Assembly (NCBI GenBank): GCA_947625635.1
Contig: CANQPA010000001.1
Location: 3,199 to 67,198, forward strand
Direction of reading: 5' to 3'
DNA length: 64,000 nt
From: an uncultured Bacilli bacterium
GTDB lineage: Bacteria; Bacillota_I; Bacilli_A; RF39; UBA660
Below are positions 14,046 through 45,943 of the stretch, piece after piece; within the stretch, counting starts at the first letter, position 1, and each line of letters starts with the position of its first letter. Position numbers and translations under genes: made by a program. Below the pieces are notes generated by a model. It had not been told where the DNA came from, searched no databases, and saw only the letters and a list, made by a program, of their open reading frames with translations.

Positions 14046-15344
14046 TTATTTATTATAAGCTTTTTTTCTTGATACAACTACTAATACTGATATTAAAGCA
14101 GCTAAACTAACAACACCTAATCCAATATATAATCCTATATTATCAAGTGTATTAGGAGCATCAACAGTATCAGCTTTAACCTCAGATGCTTTAACATATA
14201 TTGTAGCGTTTTCTTCAAGTACTTCCTCTAAATTGAAAGCTTCTTTATATTCGTCATCTTTATAGTATCCTTCTATTTTGATATTATCTTCTAGCATACT
14301 TTCTTCAAATGTTTTTAATGCTGCTTTTAATATTTCATTTGCATTTTCTTTTGGTATAGTGAAAGTAACATCTCCACTTTCAGATCCATCATCTAAAACA
14401 AGTGTTACATATAAAATTTCTTCTGATGCAGGATAAACATCACCTTTTATAGTATTACCCGTAGACATTATAGTATTAGAAGCTTCAGTGTCTTCTCCAA
14501 GATTAAATACTACACTATTTGCATTTGTATTATCAAGTGTTGAATTTGAAATAATAAATGTGTTTGATGTTGATTTAGTATATTCACTTCCAATTAAAAT
14601 CAAATCTTCTTTATTATTACTTGTTGCATTAGTTACTATAGAATTTTCCTCAATAACTAAACTTGATTCAGTTTGATCTCCAAATACTACTGTTCCATAA
14701 TCATTATCAGCATTTGCTGGATATATATTATGTCCTGTAAGTGTTGATGATTTAACAGTTACACTATTTTCTCTAGCTGCAACTTTACCATTTGATACAT
14801 CTATTGCAGAATATCCGTGTATATCACTTCCAGTAACTCTTAAAGTATTGTTTGATCCTTTTACCCAAATACCATATTTAGCATTTATTGTTGTTCCAGT
14901 TACATCAATAGTTGTATTTCCATTAGCAAGAATTCCTACAGTAGAGTCTCCAAAATCAACGTTACTTTTATCGTTAAAGTAAATTTCACTATCACTAATA
15001 TCTAATGTTGCTCCATCTTCAACTGTTACTATAGTAGCCTCTCCATCAGTTGATTTTATTGTTACTCCTCTAATAGTTAGTTTTTTTCCAGCTGCAACAG
15101 TAATAGTACCTTCTATAATTGATCCGCCTTCTTCTGCACCTATAATCTTTACATCTTTATCGATTGTAATATCTTCAGTATATGTTCCTGCAGCAAGGTT
15201 TAGTGTAGAATCACCATCCCCTAGTTCACCTAGTTTAGTAGCTATACTATCACCACTATTAAGATCTAAAGCCTTAACATTAGTAAATGTAAGAGCTAAT
15301 AAAAGTGATAAAAACGCAAAAACCCCTAATTTAATTTTTTTCAT
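14046..15344 (-). CDS. cell-surface protein with parallel beta-helix-type repeats and a C-terminal anchor
   Basis: Start moved to the ATG at 15344 (GGAGGATTGTT SD). Signal peptide MKKIKLGVFAFLSLLLALTFTNVKA. Repetitive short beta-strand units follow (TIRGVTIKS, LDISDSEIYF, TIDVTGTTINA, LRVTGSDIHG, VTVKSSTLTG). C-terminus is DAPNT + hydrophobic helix + RKKAYNK tail. Confidence 0.7.
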   Translation of the reverse strand: MKKIKLGVFAFLSLLLALTFTNVKALDLNSGDSIATKLGELGDGDSTLNLAAGTYTEDITIDKDVKIIGAEEGGSIIEGTITVAAGKKLTIRGVTIKSTDGEATIVTVEDGATLDISDSEIYFNDKSNVDFGDSTVGILANGNTTIDVTGTTINAKYGIWVKGSNNTLRVTGSDIHGYSAIDVSNGKVAARENSVTVKSSTLTGHNIYPANADNDYGTVVFGDQTESSLVIEENSIVTNATSNNKEDLILIGSEYTKSTSNTFIISNSTLDNTNANSVVFNLGEDTEASNTIMSTGNTIKGDVYPASEEILYVTLVLDDGSESGDVTFTIPKENANEILKAALKTFEESMLEDNIKIEGYYKDDEYKEAFNLEEVLEENATIYVKASEVKADTVDAPNTLDNIGLYIGLGVVSLAALISVLVVVSRKKAYNK

Positions 15345-15371
15345 AACAATCCTCCTTATCATTACAATTAA

Positions 15372-15401
15372 ATTGTACCATACCCCCCCCCAGTCTGTCA
15401 A
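15372..15401 (-). promoter_or_regulatory. promoter P1: TTGACA - 18 nt (contains G9) - TGG-TACAAT
   Basis: Minus strand reads TTGACA GACT GGGGGGGGG TATGG TACAAT. The C9 run on the plus strand is at 15383-15391. The promoter is 27 nt upstream of the ATG at 15344. Confidence 0.65.
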
Positions 15402-15432
15402 TAGAAAAAATTTTTAAAAATTTTAGTTTACA

Positions 15433-15813
15433 CTAAAATTCACATATATTACCTCTTTGATAGTCTATTTTAAATTTACTAAATAAGAAACTTTCTTCTA
15501 TACTATAATTTTCTATAGTTATATTTTTTAATCTATCATAATAATATACACTACCATTACAAGATATTTTTTCATATTTATTCATAATATCGTCAAGTTC
15601 TTTTTTTACAATTTTTGCACCTCTTAATGTTTTAAATGTTGCAGAGTATGTGCAACACTCGCTTTCTACAACTGACATTTTTGGTACCTCAAGTTCTATA
15701 AGTGATGCTCCCATAAAAATTTTTTTACTTCCCATAGGAGCTAATTTTATAACTAATAAAGAAATTATTAGAACAAACAAAATTGAAATAACTATTATTA
15801 AATTCTTTTTCAT
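15433..15813 (-). CDS. small membrane-anchored or secreted protein, unknown function
   Basis: 126 aa with an N-terminal hydrophobic helix and several Cys. No family recognised. Confidence 0.45.
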   Translation of the reverse strand: MKKNLIIVISILFVLIISLLVIKLAPMGSKKIFMGASLIELEVPKMSVVESECCTYSATFKTLRGAKIVKKELDDIMNKYEKISCNGSVYYYDRLKNITIENYSIEESFLFSKFKIDYQRGNICEF

Positions 15814-23878: not shown

Positions 23879-24538
23879 TTACTTTAATATTCTTTTAAAT
23901 TCATTATATGTTTCTTCAATCATTTCATCTGTTAATTTCATATAAGCATCGCTTTGGAGTTTGCTTACCCCAGTAGCTATTTTGACTCCCTCACCTTTTT
24001 CTACCTTTACGATATTAGGTGCGTATATCCTGGCCTCACCTGTTTTCAATGTTTCCCCATCATCAGTTAATTCATAATCCTTTAAAACATTTTTAAGTTT
24101 ATCTATTAATTTATAATATCCATCTGTCCCCTTTTTAGTAGTTTTTAACTTATCATCCTTTATTTCGATTACATCACGTATATCTTTAACATCTACGTAA
24201 TATACTTCATCTATATCTAGATCTTTTAAAACATCTATTAAAGTTGGTAAAACACTTCTACACCAAGGACAAGAATTGAACCCAAAATATACTATAAAAG
24301 ATTCTTTTTTATCCATCATATCAACTATATCTTCCGCTGTTTTATATACGAATGGATTGTCTTTTGCTATAGTTATATTTCTATATTTTTTACCACTATC
24401 ATTAACTTTATTATTTAATGATTCATACTCTTGCTTAAATTTAACACTATCAGTATTAATTTGATTTAGAGAAAGTATAACAAAAATTGAACTTAAAATT
24501 AAAACTATTGTTGGAATTATTACATATAATTTCTTCAT
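23879..24538 (-). CDS. membrane-anchored thioredoxin-fold protein (CPWC)
   Basis: N-terminal TM and FIVYFGFNSCPWCRSVLP (CxxC in a thioredoxin-like context). Confidence 0.6.
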   Translation of the reverse strand: MKKLYVIIPTIVLILSSIFVILSLNQINTDSVKFKQEYESLNNKVNDSGKKYRNITIAKDNPFVYKTAEDIVDMMDKKESFIVYFGFNSCPWCRSVLPTLIDVLKDLDIDEVYYVDVKDIRDVIEIKDDKLKTTKKGTDGYYKLIDKLKNVLKDYELTDDGETLKTGEARIYAPNIVKVEKGEGVKIATGVSKLQSDAYMKLTDEMIEETYNEFKRILK

Positions 24539-24620
24539 CTTCTACCTCCAGTTAAATCATATAATAAATCATGGGTAAAATCAATAAAATAATGGTTGAG
24601 TTTCTCAACTTATGGTTGAA

Positions 24621-25298
24621 TTAATTACAATCATCTAAAGTTAAAGGAATTTTATAGAATACATCTTTATTATCTATTGTTTTGGCTTCTATTTCTAGAT
24701 ATAATGAGTTTTCTAAATACATTTTACAAGATTTAGAAAAATGTTCAACATTAAAACTTACTTTTTTTAAGAATTGTTTAAGCGTTATTTCACCATTATA
24801 CGAAAAACTATCTATCTTTGTTTTAATATCTTTTTGATCTTCATATAAAGTACAGTTTATTTTTTTATATGTTGCATTATTGTTTTCTCCACAATATGTA
24901 ATATTTGATATATAAATAGATGTTTTGGAATTATTGTAGGCAATAGATCCAAAAAGATTAAAATCATCACAGGTCGTTGATAATGCCTTAAAACTAAAAT
25001 CATCAGATTTATAATTAAACATTACAATTAATGAAAGTACTAATAAACAAACTACTGAAATTAATATTACTAAAGTTTTATTAATTTTATTTTTTTTAAT
25101 TTCTAAAAGACTATTCATATCTATATTATAATCATTACATATCTGTTTTAATATTGATATATCTGGAATATTTTTACCATTTTCCCACTTACTTACTGCT
25201 TGATATGTAACTTTATATCTGTTTGCGAACTCTTGTTGCGTTAAACCATTTTTCTTTCTTATTTCTTTGATTAATTTACCAATATTTTCTTGATTCAT
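24621..25298 (-). CDS. single-pass membrane-tethered XRE-family HTH regulator
   Basis: HTH IRKKNGLTQQEFANRYKVTYQAVSKWENG, one TM (aa about 75-95) and a Cys-containing extracytoplasmic domain. Confidence 0.7.
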   Translation of the reverse strand: MNQENIGKLIKEIRKKNGLTQQEFANRYKVTYQAVSKWENGKNIPDISILKQICNDYNIDMNSLLEIKKNKINKTLVILISVVCLLVLSLIVMFNYKSDDFSFKALSTTCDDFNLFGSIAYNNSKTSIYISNITYCGENNNATYKKINCTLYEDQKDIKTKIDSFSYNGEITLKQFLKKVSFNVEHFSKSCKMYLENSLYLEIEAKTIDNKDVFYKIPLTLDDCN

Positions 25299-25382
25299 AA
25301 TACACCTTCTAATTTTATGTCGACATATTTTTTAGATATATAATCTTTATTATTAAATAATACTGTATTCTTTGATGGTTTC

Positions 25383-25411
25383 ATTATATTCCAAAAATAA
25401 TTAATTGTCAA
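25383..25411 (-). promoter_or_regulatory. consensus sigma-A promoter for the 24621-25298 regulator
   Basis: TTGACA (25411-25406), 17 nt, TATAAT (25388-25383). Confidence 0.55.
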
Positions 25412-25459: not shown

Positions 25460-25491
25460 ATATAATAAAGGAGAGCTAATTTTAGCCCTCC
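25460..25491 (-). terminator. intrinsic terminator after the 551-aa/66-aa operon
   Basis: GGAGGGCTAA-AA-TTAGCTCTCC hairpin followed by a U-rich stretch on the minus strand. Confidence 0.55.
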
Positions 25492-25536: not shown

Positions 25537-25737
25537 TTAATCTTTAAATATTTTCATCAATCTATCTTTAGCATCTGCTACTAGTAACCTTTGCTGATCC
25601 AAATAATCGCTTTCATTTAAAGTACCCTCTTCATAATTGGGATAATCATATGATATACCATCAATCATGTCTATAATCGCTAATAAACTTCGTATTTCTA
25701 AATTTAATTCATTTTTTTTAGACTCTATATCATTCAT
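25537..25737 (-). CDS. small acidic protein (66 aa), unknown function
   Basis: ATG overlaps the stop of the upstream gene (TAATG). Helical and acidic. No family recognised. Confidence 0.5.
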   Translation of the reverse strand: MNDIESKKNELNLEIRSLLAIIDMIDGISYDYPNYEEGTLNESDYLDQQRLLVADAKDRLMKIFKD

Positions 25738-27392
25738 TATATCTGTCTTCCTTTTTCTTCATCCATAGTATATTCAATTGGTATATCTATATCAGATATT
25801 CCATATTTTTTCGAGGCAAAATCTGAAAATTTCATCGCATAACTTTTATCTTTTAATGAAGCAAAATATTTTAAATATTCTTTATACACCGTGTGTGCTT
25901 GTTGTTCTCTCTTTTTTTCTATTTTTATTAAATCTTTAGCATATGGTGCTACTTTTTCTATATAATTAGAAAACGGAATTTTACCTAGCTCAGTTTTCTT
26001 TAATTTTTCTATTAAATATTTTTGATATAATGAACTTCTAACTATTTGAATATCCTCTGGTATTTCGATTTGTCCTATACTCTCAATTTCTACTTCCTTA
26101 TCAGCTTCATCGTATGATGGAGTATCTACTTCAGGTTTTGAATATTCATTTGTTTCTTCTGTTGATTGTATACCGGTTTTAAGTGTAGATTGTTGTAAAC
26201 CGTCAGCACTATATTTTTCTTGAACTTCTTTACTTGTTTTTTCTATATATTTATAATATTCAGGCTTATTTAATTCTGGATATTGTTTTAATATTTCATT
26301 CATCTCATATTTTATTTTAAAAATTCTTTTACTATCAATATTAGGATTTAACTCTTCTATCTCCTTGTACAAGGACCTTAACCTTTTTTCATTCATCATT
26401 ATATTTTCAATTCCTAAACTTTGATAATTTTTATCAGCTTTTTCTTGCAGTTTATATAAATCCGCTTCTTTTTTTTCTGCCAGTTCTTGTAAGCCTTGAT
26501 ACATTTCAGAATTAGATATATATGTACTTTTAAAGCTCTCTAAAACTTCTTTAATATACCATATATGTCTTGATAAAAAGAAAATATCTTTATATTGCTT
26601 TTCTAATTGTAAAAATTCACTTGATTTTTTTGAATTATAATTTTTATTGAAATATTCTAAATATTGGTATCTGCTATTTATTTCAGCTTCTTCACAAAAA
26701 ACAATACCTATTTCTAATTTATTACTATTAATCTTTTTTCGAGCTTCTTTTATTCTTTCAACATCAACGCCCAATCCACCTAAATGATGTCTATACTCAT
26801 CTTTTAATTCAATTGATAAATTAGAATACAAATTATCAATGTCATAACCAGTATCTGATAAATAAAAATCAATATCTGCAGATCCTTTAACGATTGTTTT
26901 AGCTTTTGACATTTTTAAAAGTGTTTTTTTCATAGAACTTTGTATTTTTAAAGATTTATCTCTTAATAATTCATTTGATTTAAAATATGATTTTTTATAA
27001 TGATTATTATATAAATCTATTACTTGTGATTCTTTACTAGAGTCATTATTAAGAACAGATATAAAATAATCAAGACTGCTATATAATAATGCTTCTTCAG
27101 TTATTTCCTCTAATTCATGCAATCCATCTTTCAATTGTTCAATTACGTCCCTTACTTCTATATATTGTCTTCTCTTTATTTTAAGTTCTTTTTCTACTTC
27201 ACTAATTCTTTTTTTTCTTTCTCTATCAGTTAATATTTTATTAGACTTGAATGAATAAATTCCATGATATTCGTCAATTCCAGATTCTAGATTATCTAAA
27301 CGTTTCTCTAATTTTATAACTTCGTCTTCATAATACTTAGTATTAAATCCAGTTATTATTTCTTTAGCGTTTCGTTTTTTTTCATAGTTCAT
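25737..27392 (-). CDS. large cytoplasmic coiled-coil-rich protein (551 aa), unknown function
   Basis: Strong SD (ATGGAGGTATAAA). No signal peptide or TM. Long heptad-like K/E-rich stretches. No family recognised. Confidence 0.6.
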   Translation of the reverse strand: MNYEKKRNAKEIITGFNTKYYEDEVIKLEKRLDNLESGIDEYHGIYSFKSNKILTDRERKKRISEVEKELKIKRRQYIEVRDVIEQLKDGLHELEEITEEALLYSSLDYFISVLNNDSSKESQVIDLYNNHYKKSYFKSNELLRDKSLKIQSSMKKTLLKMSKAKTIVKGSADIDFYLSDTGYDIDNLYSNLSIELKDEYRHHLGGLGVDVERIKEARKKINSNKLEIGIVFCEEAEINSRYQYLEYFNKNYNSKKSSEFLQLEKQYKDIFFLSRHIWYIKEVLESFKSTYISNSEMYQGLQELAEKKEADLYKLQEKADKNYQSLGIENIMMNEKRLRSLYKEIEELNPNIDSKRIFKIKYEMNEILKQYPELNKPEYYKYIEKTSKEVQEKYSADGLQQSTLKTGIQSTEETNEYSKPEVDTPSYDEADKEVEIESIGQIEIPEDIQIVRSSLYQKYLIEKLKKTELGKIPFSNYIEKVAPYAKDLIKIEKKREQQAHTVYKEYLKYFASLKDKSYAMKFSDFASKKYGISDIDIPIEYTMDEEKGRQI

Positions 27393-27515
27393 TTTATACC
27401 TCCATTAACTCACTATTTAAAAAGGAAAATACATAATTTAATTTTTCTTCAGTTTCTATCTCTATAAATTATATTTTATCATTATCTATAAAACCCTCCA
27501 TTTTATAACAATTTT

Positions 27516-27546
27516 ATTATATCATTACCCCCCCCCTACCTGTCAA
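27516..27546 (-). promoter_or_regulatory. promoter P2: TTGACA - 19 nt (contains G9) - TGA-TATAAT
   Basis: Minus strand reads TTGACA GGTA GGGGGGGGG TAATGA TATAAT. The C9 run on the plus strand is at 27528-27536. It lies about 120 nt upstream of the ATG at 27392. Confidence 0.65.
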
Positions 27547-27573
27547 GCTTTTTATAAAAAAAGAATAGATAAA

Positions 27574-28494
27574 CTATCCCATTATTTCGCCACCATTATT
27601 ATGTATAACTTGACCTGTCAAATAACTTGAATCATCGCTTGCCAAAAAAACAAATGTACTTCCAAGTTCATATGGCATAGCTCCCCTTGCCATAGCTGCA
27701 TTAGCACCAAGCGAAGGAATTTTTTCACTTACCCAACAAGCAGGTTGAAGTGGTGTCCAAAAAAATCCAGGTGCTATTGCATTTACTCTTATGTTTTTTA
27801 AAGCTAGGTTCCTAGCTAGTGCTCGTGTAAATCCAACTATTGCTCCTTTAGTAGTTACATAATCAATAAGTTGGGGATCCCCATAAAATGTAGTTACTGA
27901 AGATAAATTTATTATAGAATCTCCACTATGCATAAAAGGCAAAACTTCTTTAGTTAAATAAAACATTCCATATACATTTACTTTCATAGTCCAATCGAAC
28001 TGTTCATCACAAATATCTTCTAACGTATCTTGTTGATACTGTACTCCTGCATTATTTACTAAAATATTTATTTTACCAAATCTATCTAGTGTGGCTTTTA
28101 CTATTTCTTTAGAAAAATTTTTATCAGTTATATCTCCAGATAAAAGTAAGCATTCTCCACCTAAAGATTCTATATACTCTTTAGTTTCCATCGCATCTAC
28201 ATGTTCGTTATAATAAGGTATTACTACTTTGGCTCCTTCCTTTGCAAAATATACAGCGCATGTTCTACCAAGTCCACTATCACCGCCTGTTATAATAGCC
28301 ACTTTATCTTTAAGTTTACCTGACCCTACATAATTCGGATTATCAAATATTGGCCTTGGATCCATTATATATTCAAGCCCTGGCTGTTCAGGTTGTGATT
28401 GTGGCGGTGCCATTATTTTGTATTCCTTACTTTCTATACCAAATGGATCATAATAATTATAAAATGTATTCCCAAATTTATAGTCGTAATTCAA
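27574..28494 (-). CDS. SDR-family NAD(P)-dependent oxidoreductase (YdaD/YhdF-like)
   Basis: TGGDSGLG dinucleotide motif, NNAG, and a catalytic Y(VTT)K. TTG start after a GGAGG SD. Confidence 0.85.
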   Translation of the reverse strand: MNYDYKFGNTFYNYYDPFGIESKEYKIMAPPQSQPEQPGLEYIMDPRPIFDNPNYVGSGKLKDKVAIITGGDSGLGRTCAVYFAKEGAKVVIPYYNEHVDAMETKEYIESLGGECLLLSGDITDKNFSKEIVKATLDRFGKINILVNNAGVQYQQDTLEDICDEQFDWTMKVNVYGMFYLTKEVLPFMHSGDSIINLSSVTTFYGDPQLIDYVTTKGAIVGFTRALARNLALKNIRVNAIAPGFFWTPLQPACWVSEKIPSLGANAAMARGAMPYELGSTFVFLASDDSSYLTGQVIHNNGGEIMG

Positions 28495-45768: not shown

Positions 45769-45943
45769 ATTACTTCACTTCCTTTAAAAGATGAACTAAT
45801 TATAACATTTTATGATTTATTTGTCAAAAGTGTTAATATTTTAGATTTTCTAAACATAATTCCTATTTACTTGTTAATACATAATTTAAATATAATATTT
45901 ATTTTTAAATTTATAATTTTGTAAATATCAGAATCAAATACAA

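Follow-up and report, generated by a model that had tools for sequence, protein, structure and literature searches.

The minus-strand promoter at 27516-27546, which we refer to as P2, carries an uninterrupted tract of nine G residues within its spacer, and the same arrangement is found a second time in the window (the whole 64-kb stretch of DNA analysed here) at 15.4 kb, in a sister promoter which we refer to as P1. We consider it fairly probable that P2 is a length-switched G-tract promoter, that it belongs to a stereotyped class of poly-G promoters in low-GC gut Bacilli, and that it has been captured in front of an operon encoding a 551-aa and a 66-aa protein. The coordinates of both promoters and of the features around them are collected in the table.

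Table. Features of the P2 operon, its leader and promoter, and of the sister promoter P1, in window coordinates.
Feature	Position	Strand	Remark
P2 -35 hexamer TTGACA	27541-27546	-	perfect; A/T-rich UP-like stretch on its upstream side
P2 ggta between -35 and G tract	27540-27537	-	
P2 G9 tract	27528-27536	-	C run on the plus strand; putative slippage site
P2 taatga between G9 and -10	27527-27522	-	
P2 full spacer	27522-27540	-	19 nt, 10 of them non-G
P2 extended -10 TGATATAAT	27516-27524	-	TG at 27524-27523
P2 -10 hexamer TATAAT	27521-27516	-	perfect
P2 leader segment with SD-like GGAGG	27495-27515	-	homologous to P1 leader 15351-15371 (minus strand)
DUF1292 relic in the 551-aa leader	27394-27501	-	C-terminal third kept, in-frame TAA
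551-aa ORF	25737-27392	-	GGAGG Shine-Dalgarno at 27403-27399
66-aa partner ORF	25537-25737	-	start overlaps the 551-aa stop by 1 nt
Intrinsic-terminator-like hairpin at operon end	25470-25491	-	
P1 TTGACA-gact-G9-taTGG-TACAAT	15372-15401	-	18-nt spacer
P1 G9 tract	15383-15391	-	
P1 target, 432-aa protein	14046-15344	-	signal peptide and C-terminal anchor

Read letter by letter, the minus strand from 27546 to 27516 is TTGACA-ggta-G9 (GGGGGGGGG)-taaTGA-TATAAT, in agreement with the anatomy given earlier from the letters alone (perfect hexamers, a TGA-extended -10 and a C run at 27528-27536). By its elements P2 is a sigma-A-type promoter, with an UP-like A/T stretch and two perfect hexamers, the -10 being extended, and its uninterrupted tract of at least eight residues lies wholly between -35 and -10, as in phase-variable promoters of the homopolymer-spacer type. 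Tracts of this kind are exceptional in the window, which is 25% GC: G runs of eight or more occur at two places against 0.06 matches expected, a count reached in none of 100 shuffles, and there are zero other G or C runs of six or more besides the P1 and P2 tracts. Exact TTGACA...TAnAAT pairs with a 15-20 nt spacer number just five in the window, both G9 runs lie inside such pairs, and the three pairs without a G tract have spacers of 17, 17 and 18 nt; G-tract-free examples of TTGACA-17-TATAAT stand at 25411-25383 and at 45827. The coincidence of both G9 runs with promoter pairs is far beyond chance (~1e-7, by our own rough estimate).

The transcription unit proposed in the sequence-only reading, with the 551-aa ORF followed at a 1-nt overlap by the 66-aa ORF and then by a terminator-like hairpin, was borne out. 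On the upstream side, a co-directional SDR gene has its stop at 27574, 27 nt upstream of the P2 -35, and no terminator was predicted between the two; read-through from the SDR gene is therefore possible and could blunt any switch, such that expression of the 551/66 pair may not rest on P2 alone. P1 and P2 each lie ~30 nt past the stop codon of a co-directional gene (15402-15433 and 27547-27574, respectively); the P1 side was judged for a terminator by eye, and read-through into the P1- and P2-controlled genes is possible. Downstream of the pair lies a gene for a 225-aa HTH_3 protein with a membrane segment, whose own perfect TTGACA-17-TATAAT promoter is the one at 25411-25383. Both in the window (23879-25411, minus strand) and in a related locus (L001, 12147-13246), a ~220-aa protein and then a PedC/thioredoxin-like CxxC protein are encoded downstream of the 551/66 pair, the first of these having 218 aa and no Pfam hit on record in L001.

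The 551-aa protein is a conserved orphan and, as predicted from its sequence, a cytoplasmic target: it is all-helical, with a disordered acidic linker (residues 393-436) and a conserved C-terminal domain of ~100 aa, and neither it nor the 66-aa product has a signal peptide or membrane segment. An AF2 model built from the family alignment reached pLDDT 80, whilst the single-sequence model was poor (pLDDT 51). Foldseek of the AF2 model against the PDB gave no fold match (best E 0.17), and a profile search of the PDB with the 551-aa family returned coiled-coil noise only. Searches of Pfam, NCBIfam, PADLOC and PHROGs gave zero matches for either protein, as did Pfam for all 35 family members, and since tblastn of the pair against phage and plasmid collections was also empty, there is no obvious sign that these genes are viral or mobile. 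The sequence-only reading had described both products as lacking a signal peptide and a recognisable family; the first part stands, and so does the absence of a database family, yet the 551-aa protein does have a family of its own. A set of 1.84 billion representative proteins contains 59 relatives (520-640 aa, 20-37% identical), full-length homologue hits reach down to E = 4e-59, and Y459, I489, E492, E496, Y506 and F522 are invariant in the alignment of this protein and its homologues, which we refer to as X. The family also sits in a conserved module: in three related loci (L001, L123/L124 and L125) X is the middle gene of a triplet, preceded by a DUF1292 gene (84-89 aa) and followed by a 63-66-aa gene, and the small partners in L001, L123 and L125 share 52-58% identity with the 66-aa protein of the window. 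The DUF1292 homologue of L123 exceeds the Pfam cut-off for that family. Surroundings of the triplet in these relatives are housekeeping-like (ffh, topA, Band_7), and in L125 its promoter is TTGACA-17-TATAAT. A G tract as a conserved trait of the homologous operons was considered and rejected, as L001, L123 and L125 have none.

The window module differs from the triplet in its upstream part, where the X homologue and the 66-aa gene are present and the intact DUF1292 gene is missing. Its place is taken by the 123-nt P2 leader, which translates MEGFIDNDKI*FIEIETEEKLNYVFSFLNSELMEV* and contains a relic that aligns with the last, C-terminal third of the DUF1292 proteins encoded by the relatives; the ancestral promoter has been lost together with ~52 codons at the N-terminal end, and it is at this junction that the G9 promoter stands. 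Directly behind P2, 15 of 21 leader positions are identical to the P1 leader, and a likeness of at least 15/21 is seen at a frequency of 1-2e-4 when every 21-mer in the window is considered. The SD-like GGAGG in this segment lies 16 nt past the P2 -10, with no real ORF after it. A riboswitch or attenuator in the 123-nt leader was considered and set aside (no match in Rfam, fold z-score +1.1). It is because of the DUF1292 relic, the likeness of the P1 and P2 leaders and the G-tract-free promoters of the relatives that we propose cassette capture: together these suggest that a P1-like promoter-plus-leader cassette was duplicated or captured at a rearrangement junction, with 27495-27515 as the putative 3' end of the cassette. 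A promoter and leader of the type otherwise used for surface genes would have been fused by rearrangement to a truncated DUF1292 gene, and the captured cassette would have taken the place of the ordinary promoter that serves the DUF1292 + X + 66-aa module in the relatives.

The earlier argument that two like tracts point to a dedicated mechanism is supported by the recurrence of the same architecture many times per genome, in ~30 related MAGs among the matches listed. Scanning one genome per species with TTGACA-N4-G8-N(1-8)-TGnTAnAAT matched at least 119 stretches, where we estimate a chance expectation of order 1-2 for uniform-composition sequence. The matches listed concentrate in ~30 gut MAGs of <36% GC, frequently in many copies per MAG: the motif occurs at least 9 times in Lapin-016 bin53 and at least 10 times in the Hadza MAG CAKOHH (4 of them within 8 kb in locus L053), and CANRAT has at least 11 loci among the matches listed. 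Labels of the MAGs among the matches listed are uncultured Bacilli, Mollicutes, Tenericutes and Clostridium, and their sources are rabbit, Hadza and other human, mouse, goat and chicken; the source genome of the window is absent among the matches listed and, over conserved genes, is ~71% identical to some of them. The low-GC loci from the scan yielded 72 G-tract promoters. Across 486 kb of sequence from these loci there are 74 G runs of seven or more, of which 69 are accompanied by both a -35 and an extended -10, and 2 further runs (L014) directly follow a TTGAC -35 and precede a -10-like hexamer. The class can be defined as TTGACA, up to 4 nt, G8-19, 2-6 nt and TGnTAnAAT, with 9-10 non-G spacer positions, and P2 fits this sequence definition (ggta + G9 + taa + TGA, 10 non-G positions).

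In its target, P2 departs from the class. Class leaders are typically 14-35 nt with a Shine-Dalgarno sequence, followed by a secreted, anchored or pilin-like gene, and nearly all downstream genes encode N-terminal signal or anchor sequences; the target groups are prepilin-type GFTLIELL proteins, the NVINGTVEDPGDIYF family (very large and in tandem arrays, with at least 5967 relatives at E<=1e-20) and a YAYW-type signal family. The 551-aa gene, in contrast, begins 123 nt downstream of P2 and encodes no signal peptide, nor is it the surface or host-interaction gene expected behind a homopolymer-spacer promoter, a trait which is typical of such promoters and not strictly defining.

Several further features were observed across the loci from the scan. 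Prepilin-type N-termini (GFTLIELLAV) follow class promoters at L003, L007, L015, L032, L042, L047, L088, L099 and L115, and these targets would represent pilins or pseudopilins of uncultured gut Bacilli that are subject to phase variation. Tandem ~450-aa, N-terminally anchored paralogues, each with its own poly-G promoter, occur in L053 (1-8000), L046 and L036, the first tandem copy of L053 being split in two ORFs (479-1222 and 1128-1829). A run of C4-5 often abuts the -35 on its upstream side and forms an inverted repeat with the G tract (CCCCC-TTGACA-GGGG; L015, L080, L099, L036, L045, L071 and L077), and is absent at P1 and P2. Four loci of CAZFXQ (L009, L040, L051 and L085) are labelled Muribaculaceae yet have 22-27% GC and the Bacilli-type motif, and the label is doubtful. 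Candidatus Ancillula glyptotermitis, an independent lineage, has at least 7 TTGACA-AGC(A/G)-G11-12-TGnTATAAT promoters with 17-19 nt spacers (L012, L035, L048, L069, L075, L102 and L117), in which the G tract fills nearly the whole spacer; 16-19 nt spacers are also seen in the other lineages caught by the class pattern.

The canonical spacer of sigma-A-type promoters is 17±1 nt. That 19 nt is suboptimal at P2, as the sequence-only reading had held, agrees with the G-tract-free promoters of the window and related loci, which have 16-18 nt spacers overall and, for the same hexamers at the same loci, 16-17 nt in six of seven. This makes sigma-A look canonical in these organisms, and the 17±1 rule predicts that the 19-nt spacer of P2 is weak. 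Within the class, the spacer mode is sharp at 20 nt (41/72) and lengths of 17-18 nt make up 6/72 (8%); spacer positions outside the G run nearly always number 9-10, and the true run is mostly G10-G11. Since the seven Ca. Ancillula loci sit at 17-19 nt, the 20-nt mode belongs to the clade and not to the scan pattern, and with a class consensus of 20 nt and 6/72 at 17-18 nt, the canonical ON length is only putative for this clade.

In the mechanism we propose, the P2 spacer would hold a hypermutable G9 tract whose slippage changes the spacer length. Tracts of G7 (17 nt) and G8 (18 nt) are predicted to be strong, the sequenced G9 state (19 nt) to be weak, with extended -10 activity only, and G10 or longer (20 nt or more) to be weaker; the outcome would be a heritable, reversible and stochastic volume control of the 551-aa/66-aa operon. 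For the class we prefer a view in which the repertoire would be OFF by default, with lengths drifting round G10-11, the ON state (G7-8) a minority allele at each locus, and one or few loci ON per cell, a model which fits the 8% of class loci at 17-18 nt. As every class member has TGn, a change in length may act as a dimmer and not as a strict ON/OFF switch.

Tracts of different length were found before genes for 100%-identical proteins (the length-variant loci are L136-L143), which shows the class to be polymorphic in tract length in nature. For example, upstream of genes for the 100%-identical protein P0113 the sequence is gtc-G10-tatc in three samples and has G9 in two, with identical flanks, whilst the P0145 locus (100%-identical proteins) has G10 in one sample and an interrupted GGCGGGGGG tract in two. 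Interrupted tracts are those of L141 and L143, and the interrupted form is presumably a locked, stabilised allele. Paralogues inside one MAG have common flanks and a different G count, and the P0180 match is an in-operon copy without a G tract. For P2 we infer slippage of the tract, its ON and OFF lengths and the ON/OFF behaviour of the promoter. At the P2 locus itself, two possibly non-independent sequences cover the tract, the window and L122, and both have G9. L122 is a 933-nt contig at 1.6x coverage (ENA ERZ27249386) whose first letters are exactly A-G9-TAATGATATAAT; over its final ~30 nt it departs from the window sequence, and its start at the tract could reflect low coverage or tract heterogeneity. 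The species of the window was found solely in ENA ERZ27249386, at ~1.6x coverage (L002 and L122). Exact-protein look-ups with the 551-aa protein, enolase, SDR and P1 surface protein returned nothing on record, and scans of JGI metagenomes gave 0 hits with a length-tolerant P2 pattern and, with the 551-aa protein, 139 pattern matches and zero relatives.

Several of these observations weigh against a switch at P2: the tract is G9 in both P2 sequences and neither JGI scan found the species, the products have no signal peptide and the contexts of their relatives are housekeeping-like, unlike typical contingency genes and the class, and the extended -10 may sustain transcription at any spacer length. 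In one alternative explanation, with which G9 in both P2 sequences agrees, the tract is a passenger, the cassette having come with the rearrangement that truncated DUF1292 and P2 being a constitutive, weak-to-moderate extended -10 promoter whose tract may slip but without a selected regulatory role for the 551/66 operon. TGn extended -10 promoters can function without a well-placed -35, the target is cytoplasmic and conserved and has ordinary promoters in the relatives, and the junction-like anatomy, with its DUF1292 relic and P1-like leader, fits a rearrangement of this kind. What makes this explanation unlikely to us is the scarcity of such tracts, as G or C runs of six or more occur nowhere else in the window and are hardly ever met outside promoters in the related loci, and with G/C runs so rare outside promoters an uninterrupted G9 is unlikely to persist without selection. 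Moreover, interrupted and stabilised tracts do exist elsewhere in the class (L141 and L143), but not at P2.

The sharp 20-nt mode raises another explanation, in which the G run is itself a recognition or structural element, for instance by way of an accessory factor or of a changed contact with RNA polymerase, such that spacers of 19-21 nt would be functional and G9 would be ON or near ON. Class promoters with a mode of 20 nt stand beside G-tract-free promoters of 16-17 nt at the same loci, other lineages matched by the same pattern keep canonical lengths of 16-19 nt (the seven Ca. Ancillula loci, for example), and the natural alleles alternate between 19 and 20 nt, with 17 or 18 nt not seen amongst them. 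We nevertheless regard it as improbable: no such factor is known, and by our reasoning the physics of poly(dG) does not make up for 3 bp. A repertoire with few loci ON equally predicts an OFF majority allele at nearly every locus, which the 6/72 at 17-18 nt fit, and families with 10 non-G positions are under-sampled for their short-tract (ON) alleles because the scan demanded at least G8 after N4. Sequencing or assembly error, in the form of an instrument poly-G or a mis-called tract length, is a general concern with error-prone homopolymers, and L122 does break exactly at the tract; we give it almost no weight, since the same G9 and flanks are present in L122, a separate contig, the tract lies in register inside two perfect promoters, and the architecture recurs in MAGs of many unrelated studies and assemblers. 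Length switching of a captured class promoter is the reading we favour. A bolder one, in which the class is a clade-wide, semi-mobile contingency cassette with a 20-nt consensus and its capture here has placed a cytoplasmic module under stochastic control, is possible but doubtful; on this view either dozens of pilin and surface-protein loci would be OFF by default, one or a few being turned on when the G tract contracts, or the transcription machinery would read G-tract spacers in a new way.

Phase variation through simple sequence repeats is known in detail from a small number of pathogens, and our literature search found no report of it in RF39-like lineages, uncultured low-GC Bacilli or Mollicutes-like gut lineages. 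If the class behaves as predicted, gut commensals would hold many pilin and surface-protein genes, most of them OFF, under a single stereotyped promoter, which would bear on IgA and phage evasion and on the interpretation of MAG consensus sequences. P2 adds a case in which a contingency-type promoter stands before a conserved non-surface module, and hints at how such promoters are acquired; were the capture reading true, contingency promoters would spread to new genes by recombination. P2 also offers a starting point for linking an orphan family of 59 representatives to a phenotype.

Judged by its architecture, P2 is a member of a known mechanism, that of porA, tp0126 and vlp. The vlp genes of Mycoplasma hyorhinis (work of Citti and Wise and of Rosengarten and Wise, the latter cited in PMC11868660) are reportedly tandem surface-protein genes, each with a promoter of its own that has a poly-A spacer, which gives combinatorial ON/OFF expression. 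They resemble the P2 class in their low-GC Mollicutes/Bacilli lineage and in their tandem arrays, as in L053 and L046, and differ from P2 in having a poly-A tract and lipoprotein products, whereas P2 drives a non-surface protein. In the accounts of Neisseria meningitidis porA given in two papers, a poly-G tract lies between -35 and -10 and its length sets the spacer and hence the level of transcription (PMC7864442; PMC3639595). For porA, as for tp0126, the best spacer is given as 17 nt (PMC7864442). Like P2, porA has a sigma-70-type promoter whose spacer holds a homopolymeric G tract; it differs in being the gene for an outer-membrane porin in a Gram-negative pathogen, with working spacers of ~16-18 nt; P2 belongs to a low-GC, Bacilli-type gut host and has a 19-nt spacer (class mode 20), an extended -10 and a cytoplasmic target. 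In Treponema pallidum, the poly-G of tp0126 also lies between -35 and -10 and works best when the spacer is 17 nt, and across tp0126 and tprE/G/J/L the promoter poly-G is ~7-12 long, G9 being the majority in vivo and shorter tracts active (PMC7864442). There are several such loci per genome (PMC7864442), as in the class of P2, whilst the host is a spirochaete, the targets are outer-membrane proteins and the variation has been shown by experiment; unlike the P2 class, the T. pallidum tracts are without a stereotyped TTGACA-N4-Gn-N-TGnTAnAAT cassette. Campylobacter jejuni, according to two papers, has many contingency loci per genome with mutable G8-G11 tracts (PMC6321876; PMC8437040). Most Campylobacter tracts are intragenic and act by frameshift and not by promoter spacing as at P2. 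One C. jejuni locus (L041) matched the class scan pattern. Against these systems, the new parts are the breadth of the class, its stereotypy, the 20-nt mode and the putative capture of a cassette in front of a cytoplasmic orphan module.
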